Source: Candidatus Nitrosopumilus koreensis AR1 (GTDB lineage Archaea; Thermoproteota; Nitrososphaeria; Nitrososphaerales; Nitrosopumilaceae). From it: a stretch of 32,000 bases of DNA. Positions 2,259-24,892 of the stretch are shown here, piece after piece. Every line of letters begins with the position of its first letter. Within the stretch, counting starts at the first letter, position 1. The stretch is from positions 1,470,001 to 1,502,000 of the forward strand of contig NC_018655.1 of assembly GCF_000299365.1 (NCBI RefSeq). The letters are read 5' to 3'. Position numbers and translations under genes: made by a program. The notes under the pieces were generated by a model. It saw only the letters and a list, made by a program, of their open reading frames with translations. It was not told the origin of the DNA and did not search any database.

Positions 2259-2304
2259 AAGAACTCAAAAAGAAAAGAAAGTAAAAAAGTTGTGATTCTG
2301 TTAT

Positions 2305-4956: not shown

Positions 4957-5161
4957 TATAATCTCCCCGTAGAGGGTTATGATCAATGAGAGTATAAATG
5001 GTTTGTCAGTTTTTGTCTAAAAATTCGGTTCAATAAAATTGACAACGGTACTATGAATTTCATAACGGCATAACTTGCACAGTAGACGATGATCGTACAG
5101 GTCTGAAACAGATCAAAAAGTTTTCAAAAATGATCGTAACTAGTTTGCTCAGTTATGAAAT

Positions 5162-7327
5162 TCAGACAACGTACGGAGACTTGCACTTTGGACACTTGTC
5201 ATCAAAGGGTTCGTCCTTGAACCCACATTCACCGCATATTGCAATCTCTTGAACAGGTTTAAAGGAAGTCGTAAGTTCTGATGCTTTCTCAATTGCCTTT
5301 TTGATTTCTGCAGGCTTAGCATCCTTTGCGATTTTCAACGTTACAAACAATCCTCCGTTAAGCAGCTTTGAGAGCTTGTTGCATTCAGATATTGGCTCGC
5401 TTTTGTTAGTATAGTCAGAGATCTCAGATGCACTAATTTCTATTCCTTCTGAGTAAGAATCGCCATCCATAGAGTTCAAAGAGGAGTTTTTACCGTATTT
5501 CTCACCATCTAGGGTTGCAAAACGAGTAGAACTCTCAGTCTCAGTCATGCAAATAGCCACAGGATCACCTAATTCTTTGCCTTTTTTGGCTCCAACATCA
5601 ACTGCGGTCTCAATTACCTTGTGAAGGATTTCATGCCCTTCCTTATTATCCTTGAATCCAAGAATGTTAAAGACTGCCTCCTTGAGGCCCACTAAATTAA
5701 TGACTAGTGAAACAGTGCTTCTTTGCATGTACTGGGTGTTTTTAGCCAAGATGGGATTCAGTCCGCGTCTTGTCAGATCCGAGATGTCTTTCTTTCTTAG
5801 TGCCATAGATGACAAAGCTGGTTTCATCAACAATGCCAATCTTGCTCTAAAGTAAGTTTCATCTTTGTTTGATTCAAATGCTAATCTTGGAAGGTTAATT
5901 GATACTGATTGGAGCATAATTGATAGTGGACCAGAACTTTTGGTTGAGCCGTTTGTAACTCCGTAACTTGATGTTTGTCCTTTAGCAAACATAACTTTAC
6001 CACCAATTGAAATTATTTCGGATACAGCTTCAGAGACATCAGTAATCTTTCCTTTTTCATTGTCTATGATCAAACCAATTTTTGGAATTGGTGTGATCTT
6101 TGCATAGTTTTGATATGCATTAATAATTGAATTAATTATTTTTGTATCAGATCCTAGTTGCAATCTGATTGAAACATTAGTACTTGATTTGTTATATTTG
6201 GAAGTTGTAGATGCAGTTGCAAATGCTGCAGTTAATTTTTGTTCTAGTTCTGGAAGTGACTTTGAATGTTTTGAAAATAATTGAACTAATCCATCAAGTA
6301 CAATTTCTTGTGAAGCTTCTTTTGAAAGAAGTGAGATTACAACAGACAATGCACTGGTAATTTCGTCTAATTGTTTTGATGCAGGAATTCTTGAGACATC
6401 AAGATACTTTCCACCAAGATCTATTCCATCTTCAATTAACTCTTTAACATTAACAAAAACTGTATCAGGAATCATTGACCATACACCAGGATTTGCAATA
6501 TGTAGATCACCAGAGAGATGAGAGTCGGCTACATCTTTTGGTAAGATGTTTGTAAGAAGATGTTCAGCAAAAACTCTTTGTCCTGTTTTAAACAAGAGAC
6601 CTTCAGCACCGTTATCTACATTATCTAAGTTGGTAATCATCTCTTGAACATCATAAACAGGCAAGCCTAGGCGTGCAAGCTTGTTACGATATTCTTCGTG
6701 ACCGTGCTCAAGGAGCACAGAATTCACCATTTCTCTGATAAGCGAGCCTGTAAGATAGGTAGTCTGATACTTGTAAATTCTGTTTTCAACTTCTTCAGTA
6801 ATTTTTTGTGCAAGTTCAAGTGGAAGACTACCCTCACGAACAAGTGACTGAATGATTTTATGAGAATTAAATTCTTCAATGGATTCATGTGATGTTCTAA
6901 CATACATCTTTCCACTTTCAATAATTGATCTTTCTTCGATTTGTCTTGCTAAGCTCAAAACTAATTTTCCAAGATTTGTAATTGTATAACGTCTTTCAGA
7001 TTTGTTTAATGCAACTAGTGATTGTCTAAGTAATTTTCTCAAGTGGTATGCAAATTTTCCACTTTCTTTTTTTGATTTGAAACCGGCAAGTGATTTTAGT
7101 TCTGAATAAGTTAAAGGACCTTTTGAATTTAGGATTCTTAAGATATCGATTCTGTTAGGGCTTGCCATTACAGAGAAGATCATTCTGACACGTTTTGAGG
7201 TAGACTGTAAAATGCCACCCCGTTTTGATGAATCCGAATCGTCATCCAAGTCTGCATCTAGATCATCGTCTTCGACATCTAGATCACCTTCAAGATCTAA
7301 TTCTAGTTCTTCATCACTCATTTTCAT
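5162..7327 (-). CDS. Multidomain protein: acidic N-terminus, winged-helix (ArsR-like), ATP-cone, NrdD-like body and terminal zinc ribbon, with no glycyl-radical motif
   Basis: 721 aa. wHTH: NRIDILRILNSKGPLTYSELKSLAG. ATP-cone: MYVRTSHESIEEFNSHKIIQSLVREG...REMVNSVLLEHG. NrdD-like block: ADSHLSGDLHIANPG. The C-terminus CGECG...CPKCKSPYVV ends directly after the second CxxC, with no RVxGY-type glycine-radical segment. Confidence 0.6.
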   Translation of the reverse strand: MKMSDEELELDLEGDLDVEDDDLDADLDDDSDSSKRGGILQSTSKRVRMIFSVMASPNRIDILRILNSKGPLTYSELKSLAGFKSKKESGKFAYHLRKLLRQSLVALNKSERRYTITNLGKLVLSLARQIEERSIIESGKMYVRTSHESIEEFNSHKIIQSLVREGSLPLELAQKITEEVENRIYKYQTTYLTGSLIREMVNSVLLEHGHEEYRNKLARLGLPVYDVQEMITNLDNVDNGAEGLLFKTGQRVFAEHLLTNILPKDVADSHLSGDLHIANPGVWSMIPDTVFVNVKELIEDGIDLGGKYLDVSRIPASKQLDEITSALSVVISLLSKEASQEIVLDGLVQLFSKHSKSLPELEQKLTAAFATASTTSKYNKSSTNVSIRLQLGSDTKIINSIINAYQNYAKITPIPKIGLIIDNEKGKITDVSEAVSEIISIGGKVMFAKGQTSSYGVTNGSTKSSGPLSIMLQSVSINLPRLAFESNKDETYFRARLALLMKPALSSMALRKKDISDLTRRGLNPILAKNTQYMQRSTVSLVINLVGLKEAVFNILGFKDNKEGHEILHKVIETAVDVGAKKGKELGDPVAICMTETESSTRFATLDGEKYGKNSSLNSMDGDSYSEGIEISASEISDYTNKSEPISECNKLSKLLNGGLFVTLKIAKDAKPAEIKKAIEKASELTTSFKPVQEIAICGECGFKDEPFDDKCPKCKSPYVV

Positions 7328-10903: not shown

Positions 10904-11662
10904 TCAATAATCTGGTCTGTATCCGTATCTTGTACCGTATGTGTACTCTGAACTATGTGTCTTTTTGTAGAGATATCCACTTGCAAATCCTATTGCGAAT
11001 CCTCCAATGTGTGCCATATATGCAACACCACCACCAGCAACACCAAAACCACCTATGAAGAATGGTAAGAGATTTTGGAAGACTAACCAGAATGGTAAGA
11101 ACCACTTAGCTTGAATGTGCATCATTCTCCAGAAAAATCCCAACATAAGGAATGTAGTAATTCTAACTCGTGGGAACATTGCCAAGTATGCACCAAGTAT
11201 ACCAGATATTGCTCCTGATGCACCAACTGCAGGAATAGAACTTGTTGGATCAATTACAATGTGAGCTAAACCTGCACCAATTCCCCATGCAAGATAAATT
11301 AAAAGAAATTTTGCCTTACCAAATTTTAGTTCAATATTATCGCCAAATATCCACAAAAATAACATGTTACCACCCAAGTGCATCAGGCCACCATGCATGA
11401 ACATTGAACTTAGTAACGAAAAGTAAGGAGTGTCAGGACAAGCAATTCCCGGCTGAATCATTGATGAGAAACCAGTAATGCAACTAGGAACTGCACCCCA
11501 TTCAAAAAACATGAATGCAGCATTTTGGTTTGAAAATTCCCAGAATTGACCAGTAACAGCTACTTCATAAAAGAAAATTACGACATTTAGTATAATTAAT
11601 CCAATTGTGATTTTTGGTTTGAATCCTGGTGGATGTGGGTTTTCATCTCTTAATGGTAGCAT
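10904..11662 (-). CDS. Rhomboid-family intramembrane serine protease
   Basis: 252 aa, polytopic. Motifs: HGGLMHLGGNMLFLWIFG, GASGAISG (GxSG catalytic Ser), AHIGGFAIG (catalytic His). Confidence 0.85.
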   Translation of the reverse strand: MLPLRDENPHPPGFKPKITIGLIILNVVIFFYEVAVTGQFWEFSNQNAAFMFFEWGAVPSCITGFSSMIQPGIACPDTPYFSLLSSMFMHGGLMHLGGNMLFLWIFGDNIELKFGKAKFLLIYLAWGIGAGLAHIVIDPTSSIPAVGASGAISGILGAYLAMFPRVRITTFLMLGFFWRMMHIQAKWFLPFWLVFQNLLPFFIGGFGVAGGGVAYMAHIGGFAIGFASGYLYKKTHSSEYTYGTRYGYRPDY

Positions 11663-11738: not shown

Positions 11739-13004
11739 CTAAATTATAATTATTTTCCTTTCAACAAGATTTTCAATTATATTTAGAAATTGTTCATCAG
11801 AAATTTTTTCTTCATACCACCAACTTGCAGGAGTTTGTACCCATGCAGGGATTCTCCATTGTGATTCAGAAACTATCTCACGTGTTGGAACAGATACAAT
11901 CTGTTTCTTAAGGAGGAAATCAATTCCTTCAAGAAATTCTGAATCAGAAATTTGTTCAGTTGCCCACCAATCTGCATTTTGTTTTATCCATGCAGGAATT
12001 GTAGGTAGTTCTGGAGGCAATCCTTCATCAAAACCAGAAATTTTCAAAATACCTTGAGATTGCGGTCCAACTGTAAATGCAACATGCCAGAACCCCATCT
12101 CATCTATGCTTTGAATAAATTCTATAGGCTCATCATCAATAGTAATAGAAAATTTTTCATTTCCTGAAATTGGAGCAAATTCAAAATTAGCATATGTATC
12201 TAATGGATAACTATTGTAGCCTTTGATAGTCATTGTTGTACCAGACTCATCAAATTTTGCAGCTGAATACCATGCTCCTGAGTCATATCTAAAATCAAAA
12301 TCACCATCATTTTTCTTTACAGTTACAGGAATTACAGTAGTATCAACTGGCGCAAAGCAAGAGTAGAAACGTACTGGTTCAGAGACAGATGGATCTGGAT
12401 AGATAGTAAAATCTAGAATCTGTCCTGGTTCAATTTTTTCAATTGGCTCAATATTGTGGGCAACATCTAAGATAAACTTCTCATAACCATGAACAATAGC
12501 ATACACTTTTGGATTGTATACTGTATGATTTCCAACATTCTCAATTTTTCCAGTAACATGTCCATCATCATGAGTGATCAAAGTTTTGTCATAGATAATT
12601 TGAATTGGAATACGATCTTTTTCAGTTTTAGTGTAACTTAGTTCTGCATCTAACAATTCAGGATTTTCACCACGTATATCGGGGAATTTTATTTTAAAAG
12701 GAATGTCAGTCATTGCAGGGATTGGCACATGAACAAGTTCTTTAGTAATTTTTGTTGCATCATCAATAACAGAAATTGTGATGGTTGGAATCAACGCAAA
12801 ATCATTTTGGTTTTTGACATTTCCAACAACAGTAAAAATGCCTTGATAATCATAGTAACCAGTGTATTCATTTGTTGGAATAAAGACATCAGCAAATGCT
12901 ATCTGCGGAACAAGAAATATGGATAAAATGATTCCAAATAGAAGAGTTTTGTATGATATCTTAGAATGAATTGATGATATCTTCAAATCACGCGTTGTTT
13001 TCAT
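11739..13004 (-). CDS. Secreted protein of unknown function with two C-terminal Trp-rich repeats
   Basis: Signal peptide ...LVPQIAFA|DVF. There are two internal beta-sandwich-like segments (FTVVGNVKNQNDF / VTGKIENVGNHTVYN). The C-terminal tandem repeat IPAW(I/V)...WW...(I)SD..F is shared with the next two genes. The tracked TTG start at 13025 is replaced by the ATG at 13004. Confidence 0.6.
   Translation of the reverse strand: MKTTRDLKISSIHSKISYKTLLFGIILSIFLVPQIAFADVFIPTNEYTGYYDYQGIFTVVGNVKNQNDFALIPTITISVIDDATKITKELVHVPIPAMTDIPFKIKFPDIRGENPELLDAELSYTKTEKDRIPIQIIYDKTLITHDDGHVTGKIENVGNHTVYNPKVYAIVHGYEKFILDVAHNIEPIEKIEPGQILDFTIYPDPSVSEPVRFYSCFAPVDTTVIPVTVKKNDGDFDFRYDSGAWYSAAKFDESGTTMTIKGYNSYPLDTYANFEFAPISGNEKFSITIDDEPIEFIQSIDEMGFWHVAFTVGPQSQGILKISGFDEGLPPELPTIPAWIKQNADWWATEQISDSEFLEGIDFLLKKQIVSVPTREIVSESQWRIPAWVQTPASWWYEEKISDEQFLNIIENLVERKIIII
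11742..11999 (-). repeat. Coding tandem repeat (2 copies, about 49-aa period): IPAWIKQNADWWATEQISDSEFLEGIDFLLKKQIV / IPAWVQTPASWWYEEKISDEQFLNIIENLVERKII
   Basis: Direct comparison of the translated C-terminus. Confidence 0.85.
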
Positions 13005-13088
13005 AGTGCTTTTAGGCCTAAACAAAGTAGTGTAATTTTCTTAATTATTCATTTAAACCGACTGGTTCGATTATCAAATCAGTGTAGA

Positions 13089-14738
13089 TTAAACACGAAT
13101 TATTCCTTTTTGAATCAAAAATTCCAATCCTTGTACGAATGTTTGATTGTCTATATGTCCTGCAGCCCACCATGCAGCATTGTTTCTAATCCAAGATGGT
13201 ATCTCTTGAGACTCTGAAGTTTCCTGTTGAGTTGGAGGAAGTATAATAATTTGATTTTTGATTAGATATTCTATTCCTTGTACGAATGTACTATCATCAA
13301 TTTGTTCTTCAGACCACCACAATGCATTGTTTCTAATCCAATCAGGAATTATAATTTCTTTTTGTGGTGTAACTCTATCAATAACAATCGGGATAGTTGT
13401 TTGTGCAAGCTCATTATTATTAAGATTATTAAAATTAAGATGCGCAATTCCTGTTACATCTTGTGGAATAAAAAATTCAACTACATTGTGTTCTTCTCTT
13501 GAATCAGTACTAATTCCATTTTGTTCAAAAATTATTCTGTTATTTTGTGTAATAGAAAATTCATAATTGGTTGAAACAGGTTTGTTTTTTAAGAAGACAT
13601 CAGTTACATCAAAAATTATTTTTGCATTTGAATTAGATTTTAGATATTCTGGTTCCCAAGATACAAGAATTCTGAATTGCCCATTTTCAGTAACTGAGCT
13701 CAAATGAGGGTAATCCTTATCAGGTTTAATTACAAAATTCATCCCATTTGCATTTGAGCCATTTTCAAGAATGTTGAGTAATTCTTTTTGATAAATAATA
13801 AAATGGACTATACGGCCGTCAGAAAAAAAATCATCTATTGTGATTACATCTTCAGAAAGTTGCACTCCATTAATGAACATAGTAAATCCAGATACAAGCA
13901 AGTCACCAAATGTTTTTGGAATAACTAGTTCTTCATGTACAACAGATGTTTGATTGATGTTTGTATAACTCCAGTCAAAAGGCATTGAATATCTAATCTC
14001 TTTTGAATCAGAATCATATTCAAAGTCAGAAATCTCATCATAATAAGTAACGACATGAATATTCTGATCTCCAAAGTTAGGATCAACAAAATCATGTCTA
14101 GAGGTCTGAGCAATAGAAATTCCTGCGTTAAAAACTAGTGGTTCTTCAAGTGTATTGGAATAACTGTCAACAGTAAGTACACTAATATCAAATTTGTATA
14201 ATCCTCCTTCGCTGAGCTTTGGACCCTTTACATGAATCATCCTACTATCCAATCCTAATAACGAACCAAAGATACTGCTTTCACTTTCTTCCTCTACAAT
14301 AATAGAATCTGTTTCTTCTGAAACAAAGTTAAAGACTAAAAATCCATTATCAGCTTTGAATTCTTGTTCAAAAAGAAACTGTTCTCCCTTTTCAGATGTT
14401 ATATGAAAAATAACGTCACGTAAAGTAATTTTAGAATCAAAATCAATTAACGAAATCGATATTTGTTGTCCATCAATTGCTTCAGGATCACCTTTTGATG
14501 AAGAAACTTCCAGAGCCACTTGCTTTCCGTTCAATTCGACTGGAGGAAATGTTTCGCTTCCTACCCCATGACCATGAACGTCAGTAAATGAAACTAAAAA
14601 CAAAGAAGAGATTAGAAGTAATACAAATAACGATGGAGATTTCAATCTATGTCCACTTGTTTGGATCTTTTTTACGAATTTCTTTTCCATCAATTGTAAC
14701 TGAATCTTTTTCTTCAAAGATAGTATGCCATTTGCCAT
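13089..14738 (-). CDS. Secreted HG(L/V)G-N-terminus family protein, paralogue 1, with two C-terminal Trp-rich repeats
   Basis: Homologous to 14886-16589 and 24873-26240 through shared blocks GGLYKF, YYDEISDFEYD, MPFDW, VVHEELVIPKTF, INGVQL and IVHFIIY. The signal peptide ends FTDVHG|HGVG. The start is ambiguous: ATG at 14738 or 14690, or TTG at 14645, which gives a paralogue-like 25-aa signal peptide. Confidence 0.7.
   Translation of the reverse strand: MANGILSLKKKIQLQLMEKKFVKKIQTSGHRLKSPSLFVLLLISSLFLVSFTDVHGHGVGSETFPPVELNGKQVALEVSSSKGDPEAIDGQQISISLIDFDSKITLRDVIFHITSEKGEQFLFEQEFKADNGFLVFNFVSEETDSIIVEEESESSIFGSLLGLDSRMIHVKGPKLSEGGLYKFDISVLTVDSYSNTLEEPLVFNAGISIAQTSRHDFVDPNFGDQNIHVVTYYDEISDFEYDSDSKEIRYSMPFDWSYTNINQTSVVHEELVIPKTFGDLLVSGFTMFINGVQLSEDVITIDDFFSDGRIVHFIIYQKELLNILENGSNANGMNFVIKPDKDYPHLSSVTENGQFRILVSWEPEYLKSNSNAKIIFDVTDVFLKNKPVSTNYEFSITQNNRIIFEQNGISTDSREEHNVVEFFIPQDVTGIAHLNFNNLNNNELAQTTIPIVIDRVTPQKEIIIPDWIRNNALWWSEEQIDDSTFVQGIEYLIKNQIIILPPTQQETSESQEIPSWIRNNAAWWAAGHIDNQTFVQGLEFLIQKGIIRV
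13092..13349 (-). repeat. Coding tandem repeat (2 copies): IPDWIRNNALWWSEEQIDDSTFVQGIEYLIKNQII / IPSWIRNNAAWWAAGHIDNQTFVQGLEFLIQKGII
   Basis: Direct comparison of the translated C-terminus. Confidence 0.85.
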
Positions 14739-14853
14739 TGCTTGGGAAAATTTTATTCATCTCTTCAACTTTATCGTTAGTTGGGGGTTTGTTCATCAAT
14801 GCACCCCACTTCATGTTAGGAATTTTTGGCATGATATCATTGATGTCTTTCAT
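14647..14853 (-). CDS. Candidate small protein (68 aa), unknown function
   Basis: ATG-initiated ORF filling the gap between two paralogue genes. A TATA-like TTTAAATA lies about 22-29 nt upstream of its ATG. Its TAG stop is followed 1 nt later by an in-frame TTG for the downstream paralogue. There is no recognisable domain, and it competes with the long-start model of 13089-14738. Confidence 0.4.
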   Translation of the reverse strand: MKDINDIMPKIPNMKWGALMNKPPTNDKVEEMNKIFPSNGKWHTIFEEKDSVTIDGKEIRKKDPNKWT

Positions 14854-14874
14854 ATACTATCACTTGACTGAATT

Positions 14875-14882
14875 TATTTAAA
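14875..14882 (-). promoter_or_regulatory. TATA-box-like element (TTTAAATA on the minus strand)
   Basis: It sits about 26 nt upstream of the ATG at 14853, which is the spacing expected for a leaderless archaeal transcript. This is sequence-only evidence in AT-rich DNA. Confidence 0.3.
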
Positions 14883-14885
14883 AAC

Positions 14886-16589
14886 TTATGATTGAATTCT
14901 CATGATTCCTTCTTTAATCAAGAATTGAATTCCTTGAATGAAAGAGCTATCATCAATTGCACCTTCTGCCCACCAACCTGCATTGTTTTTAATCCATGCT
15001 GGGATTTCATTAGAACCAGAACCTTGGCCTTGTGATGTTGGTGGAATCTTTAGAATATCTTCTTTAATCAAATATTGAATGCCCTGAACAAAGGAATTGT
15101 CATCTATTTGTCCATCAGCCCACCAACCTGCATTGTTTTTAATCCATGCAGGTATTGCAGCAGGAGGTTGTACATCAGGAGTTTTTCCTACACTAGGACC
15201 AATCTCAATTATTCCTGAACCAATTCCTGCATAAGTTTCATCATATGCTAATCCAGTACCTAAAGCTCTTACATCAATTCTGTAAGTTCCTTGAGATGGA
15301 ATGTAGATTTTTTGAACATCAATTCCTTCAGAAGCTATAATTCCAGGCATATCAGGATTATCTCCCAAGAATGTCTCTAAGATCTTATCATTTTCATCAA
15401 TAAAAGAAACAACATATCTCATATCACGAATGAGATCTCTGTTTTCATCAAAGAATGCTATTTCAAAAGGTACATCATCTCCGGCACCGTAATTTCCATC
15501 CCATGAAATATTCACAGTTGTTGGAACCTGTTCATAGTTTGTGGTGTCAACAAGATAGAATTCAGTAGAACTCTTTGAAACTTCATCAAGTGGCACTAGT
15601 TTCAAGTTCATTTCTGTGTTATCATAGTGACTTGGTCCCAATGTTTCATTGATTTTCTGCAATTCAGCTTTGGTAATTAAAAAGTGAACAATATTGGTAT
15701 CATCATATGAATAAGGATCATTTAGTAATGCACGTTGGTCAATTTCTACACCATTGACATATCCCTTGAACTGTTTACCTTCAGCGTAAGGTGCAAAGGT
15801 TTTTGGAACTCTAACTTCTTCATGAACTACTTGAACTAAATTAACATAATCAGGATTCCAATCAAATGGCATATGAAATGAAATTGAGTTATCTGATTGA
15901 TCAAACTTGAAATTATCTACATGATCATAGTATGTTTTTATAACAACTGGCACTTCAGCGTTTGCGGTTTGTATCAGAAAGTTTTGATCTTGTGCAACAC
16001 TAACATAAGTTTCATAGCTTAGAAGATTTGCTAATACAGTTCTAGGACTAGTTGCACCTTCAATATCAACTCTAATCTTATACAATCCACCATTTACAAA
16101 AATAGGACCAGTCATTGATGGTCGTGCACAAATATCTAAGTTATCATCAGTACATTCTGCGCCTTGAACAAATAATGCACCGGGAGCACTAACATGTTCA
16201 GAACCACCATAAACAGTACATTCTTCAGGTTTAGGTTCATCACAGTTAGGATTTGGCTTAATTTTTACATCCAGTCTTCCATCCAAATCATAGAAAAGAT
16301 TTCTAGCTAAAAGTTCGCCACTTTGCCATACTTCTATTCTATATGTTACTTTATCGAGATTTGTGTCAGTTAAGGTATCAAAGAATCGTACTTGCATGTT
16401 AGCTGAATCAACTTCACCTACTGTAATATCTGATGGACTCAATTGTGTACGTACTGTTACTTCCATATCACCAAAACTCAATGCTGGAGCTTGATCACCT
16501 CCTAATCCATGTCCAAACACATCAGGAACTAATGTCGGTATTGTGAAAATCCCAACAATTACAATTAGTAATGCAAACTTATGATACAA
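14886..16589 (-). CDS. Secreted HG(L/V)G-N-terminus family protein, paralogue 2, with two C-terminal Trp-rich repeats
   Basis: 567 aa. TTG start, with no in-frame ATG before the signal peptide. The signal peptide ends PDVFG|HGLG. Family blocks: [47 protein letters not shown]. Confidence 0.75.
14889..15155 (-). repeat. Coding tandem repeat (2 copies, exact 150-nt period): [35 protein letters not shown] / [35 protein letters not shown]
   Basis: It contains a perfect 32-nt DNA repeat (14968-14999 = 15118-15149, gcccaccaacctgcattgtttttaatccatgc). Confidence 0.95.
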
Positions 16590-16701: not shown

Positions 16702-17526
16702 ATGAAAGTTATATTTGCGTTATTACTAATACCATTTTTGTTAACAGTTCCAGCTTTTGCTGAAACCCAAACATTACCAACTGAAAAGAATACTTTGGAT
16801 GTAAAATTAACATATGATGAAATTGAACCAGGTGTTCAAACAAAGATTGGTATAGATTTTATCAATCCACAAACTCAAAAAATTCAAGAACATATTGATT
16901 ATACGGTAGCTGTATCAAAAGATGGTGAAAATGTATTTGGACCAATTCCACTTACACACACATCTGTGGGATCTGTAAAAATTCCAATAGAGTTTAATCT
17001 TGGAGAAGGAATATACTCGATGGACTTTGAGATTGAAGGTATTTTATTTCAACCAATTCCAAAAGAATCGGTATCTTTTGACATTCTAGTAGGTGAAGCC
17101 AATGCACAACCAATTACACCAATAGAGAATGAAAAACTAGATGGTGAAAATGGAGGATGTCTTATTGCAACAGCAACATTTGGCTCTGAGATGGCACCAC
17201 AAGTACAACAACTAAGAGAACTTAGAGACAATACAATTCTAAAAACAAATTCAGGAATGGCATTCATGACAGTTTTTAATCAGTTCTATTATTCATTCTC
17301 ACCTGCTGTTGCAGACTTTGAAAGAGAGCAACCATTTTTCAAAGAAGTTATGAAAGTAACACTTACTCCAATGTTATCATCATTATCATTACTAAATCAT
17401 GTAGATATTGATTCAGAACAAGAAATGCTGGGATACGGTATCTCTGTAGTACTACTGAATCTTGGAATGTATATTGGAATTCCGGCATTTGGAATTCTAA
17501 GATTGTACCAGTTTAGAAAAAACTAG
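16702..17526 (+). CDS. Secreted protein: beta-sandwich module plus a GGCLIATATFGSE...LRELRDN C-terminal module with a hydrophobic tail
   Basis: 274 aa with signal peptide ...TVPAFA|ETQ. The N-terminal module resembles the C-terminal module of the paralogue family. The Cys-containing box CLIATATFGSEMAPQVQQLRELRDNTIL is followed by FNQFYYSFSPAVADF and a terminal TM segment. Confidence 0.55.
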   Translation: MKVIFALLLIPFLLTVPAFAETQTLPTEKNTLDVKLTYDEIEPGVQTKIGIDFINPQTQKIQEHIDYTVAVSKDGENVFGPIPLTHTSVGSVKIPIEFNLGEGIYSMDFEIEGILFQPIPKESVSFDILVGEANAQPITPIENEKLDGENGGCLIATATFGSEMAPQVQQLRELRDNTILKTNSGMAFMTVFNQFYYSFSPAVADFEREQPFFKEVMKVTLTPMLSSLSLLNHVDIDSEQEMLGYGISVVLLNLGMYIGIPAFGILRLYQFRKN

Positions 17527-17589: not shown

Positions 17590-18453
17590 ATGAAGACTAT
17601 AGCAATTTGCTCTTTCTTCGTACTATTTGCTATGGTAGCTGGATTAGTTGCAACAACACCAGCTGCTTTTGCAGATCATTCAGAAGTCACAATCTCACCA
17701 GCATCAGGTTCTGGTGCACCAGGTTGTGAAGAAACCGCAGATGGATGTTACATTCCAAATACTGCAACAGTTGATGTTGGCGGTGTTGTTATCATGTCAA
17801 ACACTGACACTGCAGCACACACATTCACATCAGGAACTCCAGATGATGGGCCAGATGGTGTATTTGACACCAGTCTATTAATGGCTGGAAATTCATTTGA
17901 GTGGAGTCCAACAGTTGCAGGTGAACAGCCATATTTCTGTATGGTACATCCTTGGATGCAAGGCTTGATCATAGTACAAGAAGCAGGAGCTGAAGAAGCT
18001 GATGATCATGGTGATGAGATGATGATGCCAACAGGTGCCGCTGCAGCAACAGGAATGTTGTCTGACGGTACAAAAGTTTCTGTCTGGACTACAACACCTA
18101 CTAAAGGTGAGATGATGGAAATTTCTGTTCAATTTGAAGGTGCAGAACATGTCAATCACGATATGAAAGTCACACAAAATGGTAATACAGTACTAGATGA
18201 TAAGGGCGCACATCATCATGATGGAAAAGGAGTACATATGACAAAAGCTCTTGGTTCATCTGATCCAGTAAACATCACAATTACCTTCCAAGGTTATGGT
18301 GTTGATGATCCTAAAACAGGACCAATTGGTGAAAAAGTAGTATTCTCAAACGTTGTTCCAGAATTTGGTACAATTGCAATGATGATACTAGCTGTTGCAA
18401 TTATAAGCATTGTTGCAGTTACTGCAAAATCTAGAGTCATTCCAAGATTTTAG
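17590..18453 (+). CDS. Blue (type 1) copper protein (cupredoxin) with Met/His-rich linker, second His-rich domain and PEFG-CTERM tail
   Basis: Signal peptide ...PAAFA|DHSE. Type 1 Cu ligand pattern: AAHTFTSG ... YFCMVHPWMQG (C-x2-H-x2-M, amicyanin-like loop). Linker: EEADDHGDEMMMP. Second domain contains HVNHDMKV and GAHHHDGKGVHM. C-terminus: PEFGTIAMMILAVAIISIVAVTAKSR. Confidence 0.85.
   Translation: MKTIAICSFFVLFAMVAGLVATTPAAFADHSEVTISPASGSGAPGCEETADGCYIPNTATVDVGGVVIMSNTDTAAHTFTSGTPDDGPDGVFDTSLLMAGNSFEWSPTVAGEQPYFCMVHPWMQGLIIVQEAGAEEADDHGDEMMMPTGAAAATGMLSDGTKVSVWTTTPTKGEMMEISVQFEGAEHVNHDMKVTQNGNTVLDDKGAHHHDGKGVHMTKALGSSDPVNITITFQGYGVDDPKTGPIGEKVVFSNVVPEFGTIAMMILAVAIISIVAVTAKSRVIPRF
18358..18450 (+). 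other. PEFG-CTERM-type sorting/anchor segment of the cupredoxin
   Basis: PEFG motif, hydrophobic helix and a basic cluster (KSR) at the extreme C-terminus. Confidence 0.7.
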
Positions 18454-18466
18454 GAATCCTCTTTTT

Positions 18467-19105
18467 CTATTTTCTTTTTATTAAAGCAATTATCGCCAAG
18501 ATTATAGCTGCTCCGGCAATTGATAATCCAAATATTGCAAAGTCATAAGCTGTTCCACCATCAGATGTTACTTCAGTTTCACCTGACTTTAGTTTAGAAA
18601 CATCTTGTTGTAATGATGAAATTGCATTCTTTAGAGCAGCAACATCAGCAGCACCTTCACTGCTAGTAGGTGGGAAATCTAACACTGCGGTAGGCTCTAC
18701 ATCCTCAATAGGGATTTTAATATCAATAGGAGTTCCACGAATTTCTCCTTTTAGTTCCACCATGTATGTTCCTGTTTTAGTTGGAATTATAGGTGAAAAA
18801 TAATATCCAGGTTTAGGATCAGAATTTATATCAATTTTCTTTGTTGCACCACCAAACATCACAGTTGCATCAACATCTTTGAAAGCACTTGTGATTCCTG
18901 TAAATGTACCTTCTTTTTCTCCACGTTCAATCACTTTTAGAATCAGATCATTTCTAATGCCTACAACTGGAGGCTCGATCCCCCATCCTGCTTCAATTTC
19001 GTATGGTTCGACATGAACAGTTGTATGTGCAAATGATGGTGCAATCATTCCAATTGAAAACAATAAACCAATAATACCAAAAACTAGTATTTTCATTGTT
19101 ATCAT
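18467..19105 (-). CDS. Membrane-anchored secreted protein, YcnI/DUF1775-like (tentative), predicted N-terminal His
   Basis: Signal peptide ...IAPSFA|HTTVHVEPYEIEAGW, comparable to the H-x-x-V-x-V-x-P start of mature YcnI-type proteins. It has a beta-rich body and a C-terminal TM helix plus KRK. The tracked TTG start at 19153 is replaced by the ATG at 19105, with another ATG at 19096. It is divergent from the CopC-CopD gene. Confidence 0.45.
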   Translation of the reverse strand: MITMKILVFGIIGLLFSIGMIAPSFAHTTVHVEPYEIEAGWGIEPPVVGIRNDLILKVIERGEKEGTFTGITSAFKDVDATVMFGGATKKIDINSDPKPGYYFSPIIPTKTGTYMVELKGEIRGTPIDIKIPIEDVEPTAVLDFPPTSSEGAADVAALKNAISSLQQDVSKLKSGETEVTSDGGTAYDFAIFGLSIAGAAIILAIIALIKRK

Positions 19106-19198
19106 TTCATAATTACACGTTATTATCTTTACGTGAATTGGCACAAATATCAAATTTGTGAAAACTGTTTAAATTATCAAAGATGATCCTAAGAGTAA

Positions 19199-21982
19199 AT
19201 GCAAAAATTTCTCATCACGTTATTGGTAATATCATTTATTTCAATTCCATTTGCAACAGCACACCCATTTACTGAAGAGACAATTCCAAGTTTGACGTCT
19301 AATGCCCCATCTGGAACAACTGAAGTGATTGTATATTTTTCAGAACCAGTTGATATTAACTTTAGTGAACTCAAAGTATTTGATACAAATGGAGATCAAA
19401 TAGACAATAAAGATACAGATTACTATGAAGGGGAATTATCTCTAATAATTACAACACCACCATTAGAAGATGGAGTTTACACTGTATCAACCAAAGTTCT
19501 CTCTAAAGTAGATGGCCATCTAGTTCCAGATGCATTCTTGTTTGCAGTAGGAGATGCTGTTATTGATCCCTCTTTACATAATGTAGAACGACCATCAGAG
19601 ACAGTATTTCTGCCTGAAGCTGGTGCCAGATTACCAGGATTGGTAGGTCAAACGATTGTTTTAGGTGCAGTGATTTCATCACTCATAATTTGGGGTACAC
19701 AAAATAAACAATCGATAAAAGATGAACTAGAAAAGATTCAATCTTTTCATCACGGAAAATTTATGTCAATTACAGGAATTGGACTTGTTTTAGTTTTCAT
19801 TTCAGATATTTTGATGATTGCAGTTCAAACAGTTAGATTAGAAGCATCGCCGATTGATGCAATCCAAACTGATTTTGGCAATATTTGGTTAATCAGAATG
19901 ACCATAACAATAGTATTACTAGGCATATGGTTTGGGTTAGACAGAAAAAAAGTACTATCAAGGAAAAATCAAATTGCAATGTTAGTAGTATCGCTTGTAT
20001 TAATTGCCACAACAAGTCTAATTGGACATGGTGCAGCTAGTGGAGAAACACCTGCATTAGTATTAGATTACATTCACAATTTGGTTGCAGCAGTTTGGAT
20101 AGGTGGAATTTTCTATTTTGTTTTCACATTGCTTCCAACATTTTCACAATTAAAAGAATCATCTAGAGAAAAGATGAGCCTATTAATGATTCCAAGATTC
20201 TCAATTGCATTTATCATTGCAGTAGGAATCGTTATAATTACAGGACCAACATTGATGTGGTTCCTAGAAAGTGATATTGGATTAATTACAGAATCAATTT
20301 ACGGTCAATTAATTATTCTAAAAATTGCCATTGCAGTAGTAATAGTTGCATTTGGAGGATTTTTCCAGTTCAAAGTACAAAAAAATGCAGAAAGAAATTT
20401 TTCATCAGGAAAAATTTTTGTACATAAAAAACTAAAGAGATCACTCAAAGTTGATGCCGTATTGGGAATAATACTTCTTGGAGTGGTAGCATTACTAACT
20501 AACGGAACATTACCTGCAGGAGAAATCCAAAAAGTTGATGCTCAAGAAATTATCTATGGTTTCAAAACGATAGAATTTACAGAGAACGCAAAATTTGATA
20601 TCGATATTTCGCCATTTTCAAGCGGACCAAACACAATCCTAATCAAGGTTAGTGACTTTGAAGGAAATCCACTCTATGATTCAGATCAACTCAAAGTCAA
20701 AATATCAAATCCATCAAAGAATATCGCACCAATTGAAGTGCCAATGGAGATAATCAAACAAGAAGAGAACAAACCAATAGAATTCCAAGGAGAATTAACA
20801 TTTGGATTTTCAGGAGAATGGCTAGTAGAAGTTGAAGCACAAAGAACCGATAATGCAAGCGAGTCAAAGCTTTTGAATTTACTAGTAAAGCCAAGACTGA
20901 CAGACATACAAACTCAGATTATCGAATATGAACTACCAGAGGACGCAAAACCGCTCTTTCCATTGTATGATGGGCATGATTCGATTTGGGTAAGTGATGC
21001 ATCAGCGCCACGAGTATGGCAATTTTCACTGGATTCACAAGAGTTTACACCATATTCATTTGATGGTGTAGTTACAACATTCCTTACGCAGGACAAACAA
21101 GATAGAATTTGGTTTGTGGATCCACCAAGGAATCAGATTGGATTCATAGATCTTCAAACAAAACAGATCACAACAAAATCTATTCCAAAACTTGATCCTA
21201 CAATCTCAGACAATACACCATTGTTCATAAAATCAGACTTTGATGGAAACATATGGATTACAATAATCAACAAAGACAGAATTGTAAAATACATACCAGG
21301 AAATGACGAATTTGAAGAAATTGTTTTGTCAGGAAAAGATAACTTACCGTTTGCATTAGCTCTTGATAATGATGGAAAAGTATGGTTTTCAGCAACAGGT
21401 ACAGGAAAAATAGGATACGTTGATCCAAAAGACAATAAATTGATTGAATTTACAAAAGAGCCTCCACTACAAGGACCAGAGGCATTGCTTTTTGATGATG
21501 ATGGTAATCTCTGGATTGCAGAACATACAGGCTTGGCAATCACCAAATTCAATCCAATTTTAGAAACATTTGAGAGAGTATCAGTCCCAAATGAAGAGGC
21601 ACTACCATTTGGAATGACATTTGACAGATACGGAAATGTTTGGTTTGCACAGCACACGATAGATAGCATAGGTGCATATGATCCAGATAACAATAATTTG
21701 ATTGAGGTTCCTATTCCATCAGAAACATCATTTGTGCAGTTTATGACATCAGATGGAGACAATAACGTATGGTTTGTTGAACAACAGACAAACAAAATTG
21801 GAACAGTAAAGATTACTGAGATTCCCGGTATTACATCGCAAGTTCAATCATCTGCCGAATTTGAATTAAAGTATACAGAACTTGCATCACCACTAATTGC
21901 GTTAGGAATCATTGCAACGTCTTTGTTTTATGTAAAAAGTATTCAGGATAAAAGAAGATTAAATTCACTAATCAGGTCTTAG
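19199..21982 (+). CDS. CopC-CopD fusion protein extended by a YtkA/FixH-like beta-sandwich, a six- to seven-bladed beta-propeller and a terminal TM helix
   Basis: 927 aa. Signal peptide ...IPFATA|HPFTEE. CopC module (about nt 19262-19573) with His1 and VDGH. Polytopic CopD module (about 19616-20520, including IGHGAASGE). Beta-sandwich at about 20546-20900. Repeated blades at about 20920-21820 (DRIWFVD, DGNIWIT, DGKVWFS, DGNLWIAE, YGNVWFAQ, DNNVWFVE), of the Vgb/SMP-30 type. Terminal TM helix plus KRR. Confidence 0.8.
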   Translation: MQKFLITLLVISFISIPFATAHPFTEETIPSLTSNAPSGTTEVIVYFSEPVDINFSELKVFDTNGDQIDNKDTDYYEGELSLIITTPPLEDGVYTVSTKVLSKVDGHLVPDAFLFAVGDAVIDPSLHNVERPSETVFLPEAGARLPGLVGQTIVLGAVISSLIIWGTQNKQSIKDELEKIQSFHHGKFMSITGIGLVLVFISDILMIAVQTVRLEASPIDAIQTDFGNIWLIRMTITIVLLGIWFGLDRKKVLSRKNQIAMLVVSLVLIATTSLIGHGAASGETPALVLDYIHNLVAAVWIGGIFYFVFTLLPTFSQLKESSREKMSLLMIPRFSIAFIIAVGIVIITGPTLMWFLESDIGLITESIYGQLIILKIAIAVVIVAFGGFFQFKVQKNAERNFSSGKIFVHKKLKRSLKVDAVLGIILLGVVALLTNGTLPAGEIQKVDAQEIIYGFKTIEFTENAKFDIDISPFSSGPNTILIKVSDFEGNPLYDSDQLKVKISNPSKNIAPIEVPMEIIKQEENKPIEFQGELTFGFSGEWLVEVEAQRTDNASESKLLNLLVKPRLTDIQTQIIEYELPEDAKPLFPLYDGHDSIWVSDASAPRVWQFSLDSQEFTPYSFDGVVTTFLTQDKQDRIWFVDPPRNQIGFIDLQTKQITTKSIPKLDPTISDNTPLFIKSDFDGNIWITIINKDRIVKYIPGNDEFEEIVLSGKDNLPFALALDNDGKVWFSATGTGKIGYVDPKDNKLIEFTKEPPLQGPEALLFDDDGNLWIAEHTGLAITKFNPILETFERVSVPNEEALPFGMTFDRYGNVWFAQHTIDSIGAYDPDNNNLIEVPIPSETSFVQFMTSDGDNNVWFVEQQTNKIGTVKITEIPGITSQVQSSAEFELKYTELASPLIALGIIATSLFYVKSIQDKRRLNSLIRS

Positions 21983-22790
21983 AAAGCAATCCAGATGATT
22001 TAATTCCCATAGTACCAGCTAGCAATCCAATTGCAATCAAGACAATTGTTCCTGCAGGAGTAATATCAAAGATATAAGAAACCAAAATTCCCGTTACAAC
22101 TGAAAAAATTGAAAAACTCATAGAAATAATTGCAGTTTGTTTGAAACCTTTACCATACATTATTGCTGAAACATTCGGAATAACAAACAATGCAGAAATC
22201 AACAGTACCCCAACAAGCTGAATCGAGGTGACAACTGTAAGGCCTGCCATAAACACTATTAGATAATTTATCTTCTCTACAGGGATTCCACTGACTTTGG
22301 CTTGCTCTTCATTAAATGTAGAATAAAGAATCTGTCTAAACAAGACCAATATCACAATCAGAATTGCGCCAGTAAGTGCAAGTATCAAAACAGTATCATC
22401 AACACTGACTAGTAGAATGCTACCAAAGAGGAAACTAAAGATATCAATTGTAAACCCTCCTGAAAACCCAATAATTACAAGCCCAACTGCTATGCCGGAG
22501 GACAAAAGTACTGCAATGGATGCATCTCCAGATATGTTGAATCTGTCTTTTACTCTAGTAATGATCAATGCACTAATTATTGATACACCATAAGCAGTCC
22601 ATAATGGATAAACTCCTACTAAAAGACCCAAAGCTATTCCACCAAAAGACGAATGTGCTATTGCATCACCAAACAATGAATACCGTCTAAGAACCAAAAA
22701 CAATCCAACAACTGAACAAAGAATTGCAATGGCAATCCCAGAGATTAATGCTCTGTGCATAAAACTGTAAGTTAGAATTTCAAAAGACAT
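21972..22790 (-). CDS. Metal ABC transporter permease (ABC-3/ZnuB-TroCD family)
   Basis: 272 aa, polytopic, in an operon with the ATPase and the cluster-A-I-type binding protein. The 3' end overlaps the convergent CopCD gene by 11 nt. Confidence 0.8.
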   Translation of the reverse strand: MSFEILTYSFMHRALISGIAIAILCSVVGLFLVLRRYSLFGDAIAHSSFGGIALGLLVGVYPLWTAYGVSIISALIITRVKDRFNISGDASIAVLLSSGIAVGLVIIGFSGGFTIDIFSFLFGSILLVSVDDTVLILALTGAILIVILVLFRQILYSTFNEEQAKVSGIPVEKINYLIVFMAGLTVVTSIQLVGVLLISALFVIPNVSAIMYGKGFKQTAIISMSFSIFSVVTGILVSYIFDITPAGTIVLIAIGLLAGTMGIKSSGLLSKT

Positions 22791-22792
22791 GA

Positions 22793-23515
22793 CTAATGAT
22801 GATGCATATGCTCCTGCATCGATGCTTCAGAGTATTGTTTGACAAGATCATCATCAGAAAAGAATTTTTCAGATTCTCCATGAAAGAACAAAGTTCTATT
22901 TAGACAAGCAACATGATTTGCTAATTTGTTTACAGCATCCAAGTCATGAGAAGACCAGATAATCGTAATCTTTTGTTTAGAGTTTAGTTCACGTAAAATA
23001 CTGTAGAACAGTTCTATGCTTTGCTGATCAATTCCAGTTACTGGTTCATCTAAAATCAAAAGTTTAGGATTATTCACCAAGGCTTTTGCAATAAAAACTC
23101 GTTGTAGTTGTCCTCCAGATAGTTCTCCTATTCTTCTATTTTGTAGTTCATGTATCCATAATTGCTGTAAAATTTCATTGATCTTGTTTTCATCAGATTC
23201 TTTTCGTAATCCCATCCTTACAACATCACCTACAGTTGCAGGAAAATTTTTTTCAAAAATTGGTTTTTGTGGAACATATCCAATTTCTTTAAGATAATTT
23301 CTTGATTGTCTAATGTCTTCTCCAAAAAACTTGATTTGGCCTTTGTATGTTGTATTGAGTCCAAGCATGCAATCAAAGAGAGTTGACTTTCCAGCACCAT
23401 TAGGCCCAATTATGCCTAGAAAATCACCCTGATTAACCACAAAACTCACATCATCAAGAGCTTTTACATCAGGATATCGAACAGTGAGATTGTTAATTTC
23501 AACTGCCTTCAACAT
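22793..23515 (-). CDS. Metal ABC transporter ATP-binding protein (ZnuC/TroB-like) with C-terminal His-rich tail
   Basis: Walker A GPNGAGKST, signature LSGGQLQR, Walker B LLILDEP. The C-terminus ends MQEHMHHH. Confidence 0.85.
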   Translation of the reverse strand: MLKAVEINNLTVRYPDVKALDDVSFVVNQGDFLGIIGPNGAGKSTLFDCMLGLNTTYKGQIKFFGEDIRQSRNYLKEIGYVPQKPIFEKNFPATVGDVVRMGLRKESDENKINEILQQLWIHELQNRRIGELSGGQLQRVFIAKALVNNPKLLILDEPVTGIDQQSIELFYSILRELNSKQKITIIWSSHDLDAVNKLANHVACLNRTLFFHGESEKFFSDDDLVKQYSEASMQEHMHHH

Positions 23516-24417
23516 AGTGCCTCCTTTAGGTTCTCAAGATTTTGGTTCATTTTTTCAATGTAGGTTCCATCAGATGCAATCTCTAATGAGGATAAAACCA
23601 AAACTTTGCCGTCAATTTCATGCGCAATGGTTTGAGAAGTTCTAGCATCAACTGTTTCTTTGCTAAAAATTATTTTGATATTAAGTTCTTTTGCAGTTGT
23701 AATTACACTCTCTAGCTTTTTTGCAGTGGCTTCTCCATGTGAATCAGTCGAAGAGATGATTGTGTGTTGATGTAAGCCATACTCATCAGCAAAATATGAA
23801 AAGGCATCATGAAATGCAATAAAATCAGAATTACAATTTGACAAATCATTTCGAATTTGTGAGTCCAATAAGTTGAGTTCTTCAATGTATGATTCAGCAT
23901 TGGATTGATAAAATTGCACGTTTTGAGGATCATGTTTTGAAAATGCATCTGCAATGTTTTGAACTTGAATTTTTGCATATACAGGATTTAACCATATATG
24001 CGGATCTCCTGATTCATGATCATATTCATCTTCTTGAGATTTTTTTGCTAAAATTCCATCGCTTGTATCAATTATAGTTCCCTGATAGTTATTATCATCA
24101 AGTTTATCGACCCAATTTTCAAAACCAATTCCATTAATAATTATAAGATCAGATGCTTGCATTTTTTGCACATCTTTAATTGTTGGTTCCCAATCATGAG
24201 GTTCAACTCCAACTGGAACAAGTAATGTGACATCAACTTTGTCTTGTCCTACATTTTGTGCAAATTCATGCAACGGATTAAATGATGATATGACTTGCAG
24301 TTTTGAATTTTCTGGAGAAGTAGATTCGGTGTTTGGATTTGTTCCATAAACTGCAAGTGAGCTTAATGGAATTACTACAGATATTACAATTATTGCAAGT
24401 TTGGTTTGTATATTCAC
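23509..24417 (-). CDS. Metal ABC transporter substrate-binding protein (ZnuA/TroA family)
   Basis: 302 aa with a GTG start and an N-terminal anchor/signal. Ligand contexts: VEPHDWEPT, GDPHIWLNP, AFHDAFSYF, KETVDAR. This is a three-His plus Asp pattern, of the Zn/TroA type rather than the Mn type with Glu. There is a short acidic/His loop, EDEYDHESGDPH. Confidence 0.8.
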   Translation of the reverse strand: MNIQTKLAIIVISVVIPLSSLAVYGTNPNTESTSPENSKLQVISSFNPLHEFAQNVGQDKVDVTLLVPVGVEPHDWEPTIKDVQKMQASDLIIINGIGFENWVDKLDDNNYQGTIIDTSDGILAKKSQEDEYDHESGDPHIWLNPVYAKIQVQNIADAFSKHDPQNVQFYQSNAESYIEELNLLDSQIRNDLSNCNSDFIAFHDAFSYFADEYGLHQHTIISSTDSHGEATAKKLESVITTAKELNIKIIFSKETVDARTSQTIAHEIDGKVLVLSSLEIASDGTYIEKMNQNLENLKEALC

Positions 24418-24458
24418 GCAACCGTTAATTAAAATTTTATTAATAAATCTATAAAATC

Positions 24459-24471
24459 TTAATAATATTAA
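24459..24471. promoter_or_regulatory. Perfect 6-1-6 inverted repeat TTAATA-A-TATTAA in the divergent transporter/NikR-like intergenic region (candidate operator)
   Basis: Read directly from the sequence. The region is extremely AT-rich, so a chance palindrome is plausible. Confidence 0.25.
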
Positions 24472-24508
24472 TTGCTAAACTTATAAGATAATTAATAACA
24501 TTAGGCAT

Positions 24509-24892
24509 ATGCCAATAGTATCAATCTCACTAAATGATGAGATTCTATCTGAGTTAGACAAATTGCAATCAAGCATGGGTTTCTCAGGAAGATCTGAGGC
24601 AATCAGGGCAGGAATCAGGGCATTTGTTTCAGAAGAAAAACAAAAGTCAGATTTATCAGGTAATATTCATGCAATTCTTTTGGTGGTACACAATGATGAG
24701 TTTGATCATGTTGTGTCAGGGATAACTCATAACTTTGAAGATCTAATAACTACACATCTTCACAGTAAAATTGACAAAGAAAAATGCATGGAACTTTTTG
24801 TAATTGATGGAGATGCAGAAAAGGTTTCTACAATGACAAAAGACTTTCAGATAAACAAAAACATGGATACTGTTAGACTTGTTGCAATCTAA
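24509..24892 (+). CDS. nikR: NikR-family metal-responsive ribbon-helix-helix regulator
   Basis: 127 aa. N-terminal RHH (VSISLNDEILSELDKL...GRSEAIRAGIRAFV). C-terminal metal-binding-domain pattern VVHNDEFDH ... THLHSKIDKEKCMELF (H-x-H...C), similar to NikR high-affinity site residues. Confidence 0.75.
   Translation: MPIVSISLNDEILSELDKLQSSMGFSGRSEAIRAGIRAFVSEEKQKSDLSGNIHAILLVVHNDEFDHVVSGITHNFEDLITTHLHSKIDKEKCMELFVIDGDAEKVSTMTKDFQINKNMDTVRLVAI

Follow-up and report, generated by a model that had tools for sequence, protein, structure and literature searches.

Here, we analysed 32,000 nucleotides from Candidatus Nitrosopumilus koreensis AR1 (contig NC_018655.1, positions 1,470,001 to 1,502,000; hereafter the window), in which three consecutive minus-strand genes, referred to as carriers A, B and C, each encode two copies of a tryptophan-rich repeat of about 37 amino acids (aa) at the C-terminus of their product. 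Most likely, this repeat pair is a modular non-covalent surface tether in archaea, for which we found neither a solved relative of its fold nor a described archaeal counterpart. In the reading that we prefer, and to which we assign a probability of about 0.6, the pair folds on its own and keeps exported proteins bound, without a covalent link, to a shared component of the envelope, as an alternative to covalent or integral anchoring. The analysis followed up a reading of the window from its letters alone (the sequence-only reading), which had proposed a role of the repeat in surface docking.

Three consecutive genes end in a repeat pair

The carriers, given here as open reading frames, and their repeats are located in the window as follows.

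11739-13025, minus strand: carrier A (NKOR_08900), 428 aa, with a signal-peptide-like N-terminus, an ectodomain and a C-terminal repeat pair
11889-11999, minus strand: A repeat 1, IPAWIKQNADWWATEQISDSEFLEGIDFLLKKQIVSV; checked by translation
11742-11852, minus strand: A repeat 2, IPAWVQTPASWWYEEKISDEQFLNIIENLVERKIIII; the most divergent of the six copies, extending to the last codon of the gene
13089-14738, minus strand: carrier B (NKOR_08905), 549 aa, with a beta-rich ectodomain of the HGVG family and a C-terminal repeat pair
13239-13349, minus strand: B repeat 1, IPDWIRNNALWWSEEQIDDSTFVQGIEYLIKNQIIIL; checked by translation
13092-13202, minus strand: B repeat 2, IPSWIRNNAAWWAAGHIDNQTFVQGLEFLIQKGIIRV; checked by translation
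14886-16589, minus strand: carrier C (NKOR_08915), 567 aa, with an ectodomain of the HGLG family and a C-terminal helical repeat pair
15045-15155, minus strand: C repeat 1, 37 aa; checked by translation
14895-15005, minus strand: C repeat 2, 37 aa; checked by translation

The gene names NKOR_08900, NKOR_08905, NKOR_08915 and, for comparator D below, NKOR_08960 follow from exact protein identity. For carrier A, the start annotated by NCBI is 13004 (421 aa) rather than the TTG at 13025; for carrier B, it is 14690 (533 aa) as against 14738 for the longest open reading frame, and most homologues of B measure 530-535 aa. The repeats follow the consensus IPxWIKNNAxWWxxGxIDDxxFVQGIxxLIKxGI, with the two copies 49-50 aa apart in A, B and C. 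Alignment of the six copies revealed ten invariant columns (I, P, W, A, W, W, I, F, L, I) and a mean column identity of 63%. At DNA level, the copies are spaced by 147-150 nucleotides and are merely 63-77% identical, which argues that they are old and kept at the protein level and do not result from a recent duplication or an assembly artefact. No further copies were detected in a six-frame motif scan of the 32-kb window, whose guanine-cytosine (GC) content of about 35% marks it as AT-rich. The claim of the sequence-only reading that three adjacent genes each end in a duplicated tryptophan-rich motif was thus correct in every detail, all six copies having been located and translated. It had further stated that the carrier at 11739-13004 is unrelated to the other two outside the repeat, and BLASTP of A against C indeed matched the repeat region alone (E 9e-21, 88 aa) and nothing elsewhere. 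B and C are paralogous over their full length (29% identity, E 2e-59).

The repeat is a widespread accessory module

A search with the repeat pair in a set of 5.8 billion sequences returned 916 proteins with E values down to 1e-62, a similarity that, judged from these scores, is far beyond chance. With a profile of the single repeat, 5,792 clusters (50% identity) were matched at E<=1e-3 and 3,669 at E<=1e-10 among 1.84 billion cluster representatives, and at least 550 loci were confirmed when one genome per species was scanned. The best 80 of these loci were labelled Nitrosopumilaceae (Nitrosopumilus, Nitrosarchaeum and relatives) or unclassified thaumarchaeal or archaeal metagenome-assembled genomes; the single exception was labelled Proteobacteria and, to judge by a GC content of 36.6%, may be misbinned.

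When 106 carriers were surveyed with Pfam, 61 different co-occurring families were counted. Carrier domains comprise peptidases (M10, S8, C11, M66, M12), other enzymes (polysaccharide deacetylase, GDSL lipase, GH57, flavin amine oxidase) and, in addition, Big and HYR immunoglobulin (Ig)-like domains, cupredoxins, MopE, RTX repeats, pentapeptide repeats, an Hcp-like domain and a PhnD-type binding protein of an ATP-binding cassette (ABC) transporter. By their domain content, the carriers all look like exported proteins of unrelated kinds. Since carrier domains are this varied, we regard the repeat as an accessory module shuffled among exported proteins; its earlier description as a portable module is well supported by the cluster and family counts.

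The architecture was assessed in the 145 newly returned proteins among the best 150 profile matches. Exactly two repeat copies were present in 128 of the 145, and in 110 the pair finishes within five residues of the C-terminus; in about 21 (~15%), it directly follows an N-terminal signal peptide. In numerous stand-alone proteins, 95-130 aa long, there is nothing besides a signal peptide and the repeat pair. Across 480 pairs from other carriers, the period from start to start was 49 or 50 aa in 451, with an inter-repeat linker rich in S, T, Q, P, G and E, and the window pairs agree with them in period and architecture. We propose a new family, the WW-hairpin pair, with a unit of ~37 aa that mostly comes in pairs of 49-50-aa period on proteins with a signal peptide and without another anchor. 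As its key residues we propose P4, W6, [KR]8, N9, N10, A11, W13, W14, I19, D21, F24, G27 and L31. All window copies match the repeat profile and five of the six retain every key residue, the deviating one being A repeat 2, which departs at several of these positions and has TP where NN is conserved. In the 480 pairs, repeats of the same protein are 71% identical, compared to 65% for first against first and 61% for first against second repeats across proteins. In this comparison, the higher likeness within proteins points to co-evolution or occasional homogenisation of the two halves.

Is the module, then, a sorting, processing or secretion signal, recognised by a dedicated enzyme and removed or modified like PEFG-CTERM, the C-terminal sorting motif of the same lineage? 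Such an enzyme could be the rhomboid protease encoded next to A (10904-11662), whose gene adjoins the carrier cluster both in the window and in the syntenic locus L164; besides, the module usually sits at the extreme C-terminus and takes the PEFG-CTERM position in paralogues. We hold this to be very improbable, because the module occurs at either terminus and internally: about 15% of carriers have it N-terminally after the signal peptide and some giant proteins contain several internal pairs. It is also predicted to be a confidently folded, soluble domain of 80 aa without a hydrophobic span, unlike the tripartite CTERM signals, and the carrier genes vary among strains, unlike the rhomboid gene, which lies in a conserved core block.

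The giant proteins are P0123 (4762 aa; L081, 3001-17289) and P0121 (4046 aa; L083, 3408-15548), each with two or three divergent internal pairs. The halves of the P0123 pairs have differentiated, LW replacing WW in every second repeat of a pair; P0121 and two neighbouring genes encode reprolysin-like M12 metalloproteases. GC contents of 59% (L081) and 51% (L083) suggest that the module is not strictly confined to low-GC Nitrosopumilaceae. Another variation is an extra conserved tail after the second repeat, ...TSSGSEPPSW[YLF][EDNGQ]-COOH, found in one carrier family with 13 of the 122 carriers from loci L001-L080 (P0001, P0002, P0005, P0137 and others), which resembles the start (P-x-W) of a truncated third repeat.

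The pair is predicted to fold as a separate helical unit

The AlphaFold2 model of the C tail, computed with 65 aligned homologues, has a predicted local distance difference test score (pLDDT) of 86, a predicted template modelling score (pTM) of 0.75 and four helices (11-21, 27-39, 61-71, 77-89). In this model, each repeat is predicted to form a helix-loop-helix hairpin, with PxWIKNNAxWW as helix 1, xxGxIDD as loop and xxFVQGIxxLIKxG as helix 2, and a short I/V-rich tail follows each unit of ~37 aa. Packing of both hairpins into one unit is suggested by the high pTM together with the fixed length of the linker. In the full-length AlphaFold2 model of C, an all-beta ectodomain (aa 31-463) is divided from the helical pair (aa 481-559) by a disordered-like linker (aa 465-477, pLDDT <50), so the pair appears separate from the fold of its carrier. 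The sequence-only reading had named burial of the repeat in a catalytic fold as an outcome that would speak against it, and in the model the pair is not buried in the beta-rich ectodomain.

Conservation was assessed in 952 unique repeats on unrelated carriers, in which K/R8 (99%), N9 (89%), N10 (93%), D21 (94%) and G27 (91%) are conserved and the aromatic residues W6, W13, W14 and F24 are likewise nearly invariant. Near-invariant residues that are expected to be solvent-facing suggest a partner common to all carriers, and we infer that the conserved polar and aromatic residues K/R8, N9, N10, W13, W14, D20, D21, Q26 and G27 form a binding face. Trp, Asn and Asp abound on this face, as they typically do in sugar-binding sites, and it would also suit a ligand- or substrate-binding module resembling carbohydrate-binding modules (CBMs), aimed at an external polymer, particle, glycan or metal rather than at the envelope of the cell itself. 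The many hydrolases among the carriers (peptidases, deacetylases, lipase, GH57) and the metal-handling neighbourhood in the window would fit such a role. It is improbable nonetheless, since some carriers lack a polymer substrate (the ABC-transporter binding protein, the cupredoxins and the amine oxidase), the predicted small helical bundle matches no known CBM structure, and ligand binding does not predict the exchange with membrane anchors to which we now turn.

The module and membrane anchors replace each other

By analogy with PGF-CTERM, we presume that an archaeosortase processes PEFG-CTERM and so anchors the protein covalently to a lipid. A PEFG-CTERM tail is absent from all of 265 carriers, only one of which shows a doubtful C-terminal hydrophobic stretch, and only one of 369 carriers (length >=150 aa) has a transmembrane-like segment beyond its N-terminus. 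No such segment lies within the repeat pair, and the PEFG-CTERM model TIGR04296 gave no match in NCBIfam searches with A, B, C or the isolated pair. Other exported proteins of the window do bear anchors: PEFG-CTERM (twice), CFI-box-CTERM and a C-terminal transmembrane helix. The two proteins with PEFG-CTERM, both detected by the same NCBIfam search, serve as comparators.

24873-26243, minus strand: comparator D (NKOR_08960), paralogue of B and C, with a PEFG-CTERM tail (24876-24980) where its siblings have the repeat pair
17590-18453, plus strand: plastocyanin-like cupredoxin with a PEFG-CTERM tail (TIGR04296, E 2.5e-13)

D aligns with C over aa 1-336 of the latter (28% identity, E 3e-37) and its C-terminus matches TIGR04296 (E 1.6e-10). 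The best 120 matches among homologues of this family, which we call HGxG, are all orthologues of B or C and all have the repeat pair, orthologues of D falling outside this set. For the cupredoxin, we found a counterpart from elsewhere, P0258 (39% identity, E 2e-28), that ends in a repeat pair instead of PEFG-CTERM. The replacement of the repeat by PEFG-CTERM in a third HG(L/V)G paralogue, as proposed from the letters of the window, is therefore confirmed; the swap recurs independently in the cupredoxin family and, with a transmembrane helix instead of PEFG-CTERM, in PhnD.

The most informative of the three exchanges is that of PhnD, a phosphonate-binding protein encoded beside the ATPase and permease of its ABC transporter. 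In organisms without an outer membrane, binding proteins of ABC transporters are the textbook case of retention at the membrane by a lipid or transmembrane anchor. With the core of the binding protein alone as query, 80 orthologous loci of 80-97% identity were gathered, which fall into the following architectures.

36 of 80 loci: canonical cleavable signal peptide (MTRK, 13-residue h-region, PLAASA|QSD), one hairpin and a linker of ~10 aa
about 31 of 80 loci: long, uncleavable-looking hydrophobic helix (IAGIAIGTLAIGIAIGFFIP) and a linker of ~27 aa, without hairpin
remainder of the 80 loci: truncated or frameshifted

As far as these alignments tell, the hairpin of PhnD stands in for the membrane anchor. 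It takes the exact place of the transmembrane helix and linker, the signal-anchor known from ABC-transporter binding proteins of archaea and Gram-positives; the difference is that PhnD of the repeat type has a canonical cleavable signal. If its mature form is retained at all, protein-ligand contacts rather than membrane insertion would account for this. Taken together, the sequence comparisons indicate that the exchange of anchor for module is independent in three unrelated families: HGxG, cupredoxin and PhnD.

PhnD of locus L082 has a signal peptide and two repeats at its N-terminus; among the members read of its 90%-identity cluster (1,638 members), most have one repeat and one has a transmembrane helix instead. 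In the L082 contig (IMG/VR UViG_3300006340_000718, 1-7139), phage-tail-like genes (701-3756, 32% GC) and a cellular ABC-transporter operon (3980-6357, 38% GC) are fused; this contig was probably assembled as a chimera, was misclassified or covers a provirus junction. We had considered viral carriers as a hint to surface binding and dismissed them, as this contig is the one IMG/VR match and its carrier is the cellular PhnD gene, not a viral one.

Several points weigh against an envelope tether. Each exchange probably reflects one evolutionary event, which reduces the evidence to three events rather than dozens; in PhnD, repeat-type and transmembrane-type loci form two bands of identity to the query (92-97% versus 84-91%). 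The surface layer (S-layer) might already confine soluble proteins in the pseudoperiplasm, making a tether needless for PhnD with a cleaved signal, in which case the swap would show merely that the anchor is dispensable. A stand-alone protein of signal peptide and repeat pair would be a pure tether without obvious cargo. Finally, signal peptides were called by eye and with a crude hydrophobicity scan, and the carrier sample consists of top-scoring matches, which inflates conservation and the share of two-copy proteins.

The stand-alone proteins would fit better with a module for self-association, in which hairpins of different chains form four-helix bundles, giving homo- or hetero-oligomers, with no anchoring role. 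In the single-repeat carriers of the PhnD clade, the wide hydrophobic face of the one hairpin could be buried only against a second hairpin from elsewhere, and the within-protein identity of 71% against 61-66% across proteins fits as well. We rate self-association as unlikely, though as the strongest of the competing explanations: it leaves unexplained both the mutual exclusion of module and membrane anchors and the transmembrane helix as the alternative in PhnD, and where two copies are present, the prediction (pTM 0.75) has them pack against each other in a single chain, to which the fixed linker length is suited.

A putative non-covalent envelope tether

We thus suggest that the repeat pair acts as a tether at the envelope of the producing cell. 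Two hairpins, joined by a fixed S/T/Q/P/G linker of 11-13 aa, would pack into one small four-helix domain, which would be attached through a flexible linker to the N- or C-terminus of Sec-exported proteins. This domain would tether its carriers non-covalently to a shared envelope component and would fill the role taken in sister proteins by a transmembrane helix or a lipid anchor of the archaeosortase-type PEFG-CTERM kind. If the module binds the envelope, as we infer, its partner should be at or near the membrane, be it the head-groups of lipids or glycolipids, a membrane protein or that end of the S-layer protein which is closest to the membrane. A membrane-near partner is favoured because the PhnD core, only ~10 aa away from the hairpin, must still dock on the permease, a geometry that does not favour S-layer binding as proposed in the sequence-only reading. 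The glycosylated outer canopy of the S-layer is also a less likely partner since the S-layer glycans of N. maritimus point away from the cell (PMC11153153).

Going further, the pair could be the first general non-covalent retention system described for archaea. It might serve as a peripheral anchor that recognises either head-groups of the glycerol dialkyl glycerol tetraether (GDGT)/crenarchaeol monolayer or one dedicated membrane-proximal receptor. Such an anchor could define a pseudoperiplasmic proteome including copper- and nutrient-binding proteins, and strains could switch proteins between covalent (PEFG-CTERM/transmembrane) and reversible (hairpin) attachment. This extended scenario is speculative, and we consider it doubtful as a whole.

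The repeat corresponds to no named domain

Full proteins (Pfam E<=1) and isolated repeat tails (E up to 10) were searched against Pfam-A (copy of 2025) and NCBIfam (June 2026), and neither reached a curated cut-off in these collections, with sub-threshold noise as the only output. A profile of the six copies found no true match among PDB sequences, the single match (E 0.73, a ThiJ protein) being judged as chance, and Foldseek with the repeat-pair model returned no similar structure in the PDB (best E 5.4) or in the viral-protein set BFVD (best E 1.4). The literal motif strings NNAGWW and WIKNNA are absent from a full-text literature corpus of ~8 million texts. No description of the repeat was found in the literature on PEFG-CTERM, the Nitrosopumilus S-layer and the exoproteome, and it goes unmentioned in the N. 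maritimus S-layer paper and the proteomics paper. The impression that this is not a named domain has accordingly held up, and the Pfam, NCBIfam and PDB profile searches gave no described domain with another function.

The public names of the carriers in NCBI and UniRef are "hypothetical protein", "peptidase" and "secreted periplasmic Zn-dependent protease". The "peptidase" name may stem from the likeness of the repeat to part of PF13485 (Peptidase_MA_2), with sequence scores of 14.4 bits (C tail) and 21.1 bits (P0224), both far under the curated gathering cut-off of 32.4. These names and weak matches would be expected if the repeat were part of a peptidase, such as a propeptide or a zincin fragment. 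We give this explanation hardly any credence, as most carriers are not peptidases and the six window copies contain no HExxH zinc motif. Moreover, a fold search with the C ectodomain found only generic strings of Ig/macroglobulin (MG)-like beta sandwiches (template modelling score below 0.2) and no protease fold for the B/C/D ectodomain, which gives no basis for assigning an enzymatic function. The name "peptidase" was thus rejected.

Comparison with known anchoring modules

The sequence-only reading had drawn an analogy to surface-layer homology (SLH) domains and dockerins, which holds for the logic and fails for homology, there being no match in sequence, fold or calcium loop. Like the repeat, SLH (PF00395) is a short helical unit in tandem at the N- or C-terminus of S-layer proteins and unrelated exo-enzymes, is widely shuffled among carriers and tethers them non-covalently, in its case to the Gram-positive envelope. 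No SLH match was obtained with the full proteins or the three repeat tails at the Pfam thresholds given above, and the PDB fold search with the repeat pair gave no SLH-type fold. SLH domains come as three copies of ~55 aa, the repeat as two of ~37 aa. SLH binds a pyruvylated secondary cell-wall polymer, whereas the hosts of the repeat are archaea, and we know of no such polymer in Nitrosopumilus.

Type I dockerins (PF00404) share with the pair a duplicated short segment that gives one small helical domain with internal two-fold sequence symmetry, usually C-terminal on secreted enzymes, and the docking logic. The repeat proteins gave no dockerin match in Pfam or by fold, and the module differs in occurring also in single-copy and multi-pair forms. 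A calcium loop of the EF-hand/dockerin type (Dx[ND]xDGxIxxxD) was considered and rejected, as the loop in the 952 repeats reads A-[DE]-G-x-I-D-D-x-[ST]-F, with G/W or variable residues at the calcium-ligand positions in either register. No cohesin-like partner is evident in the window, and no genome-wide partner search was made.

PEFG-CTERM occurs in the same lineage, on the same carrier classes and in the same C-terminal position as the pair (D versus B and C; the window cupredoxin versus P0258), with presumably the same end result, retention at the cell surface. It differs as a motif of ~30 aa with transmembrane helix and basic tail from a folded, soluble repeat pair of ~90 aa that lacks a hydrophobic span and occurs at the N-terminus, too.

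Genomic neighbourhood

The repeat carriers adjoin a metal-handling block (17590-24892). Besides the comparators, the following genes surround the carriers.

10904-11662: rhomboid gene adjoining carrier A
16702-17526: exported protein with CFI-box-CTERM (NF041770, E 4.7e-21)
18467-19153: exported protein with a C-terminal transmembrane helix and His as first residue after the signal peptide
19199-21982: CopC-CopD fusion with a C-terminal beta-propeller
21972-22790: Znu-type permease, assigned by inspection only
22793-23515: Znu-type ATPase, assigned by inspection only
23509-24417: ZnuA of the Znu-type ABC transporter, confirmed by Pfam
24509-24892: NikR-like regulator

With CFI-box-CTERM, the 10 kb around the repeat carriers hold a third kind of C-terminal device for retention or sorting. 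In the HGxG family (C, B and D), His directly follows the predicted signal cleavage site (...FG|HGLG, ...HG|HGVG, ...YG|HGLG), and H27, G28 and G30 do not vary among 121 aligned homologues. With His at the N-terminus of an exported beta-sandwich protein and a neighbourhood rich in copper genes, the family brings to mind, by analogy, a histidine-brace copper site.

Locus L164 is syntenic with the window, with genes for a rhomboid, a CN-hydrolase, a Zn-ribbon protein and a thiolase in the same order. At the place of carrier C, it has a gene for a stand-alone protein of 113 aa (6001-6342) with signal peptide and repeat pair. In two other genomes, this type of small gene borders unrelated genes, and no conserved partner gene lies beside it in the neighbourhoods compared. 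The carrier cluster belongs to the flexible genome.

Implications

Nitrosopumilaceae rank with the ocean's most abundant cells, and their ammonia oxidation and nutrient capture take place outside the membrane, under the S-layer. To our knowledge, no route for retention of their exported proteins is known beyond transmembrane helices and the predicted PEFG-CTERM/archaeosortase system. The module described here is found on at least 5,792 protein clusters without a database entry of its own; its public name "peptidase" is supported by no search performed here, and hundreds of entries called "peptidase" or "Zn-dependent protease" owing to this repeat need renaming. If the pair is a true tether, it would provide a sequence marker for the envelope-resident proteome of these archaea and explain differences in anchor type between orthologues. 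It would also offer a handle for surface display or receptor pull-downs, and modules of the class of SLH, dockerin and LysM would gain a counterpart from archaea.

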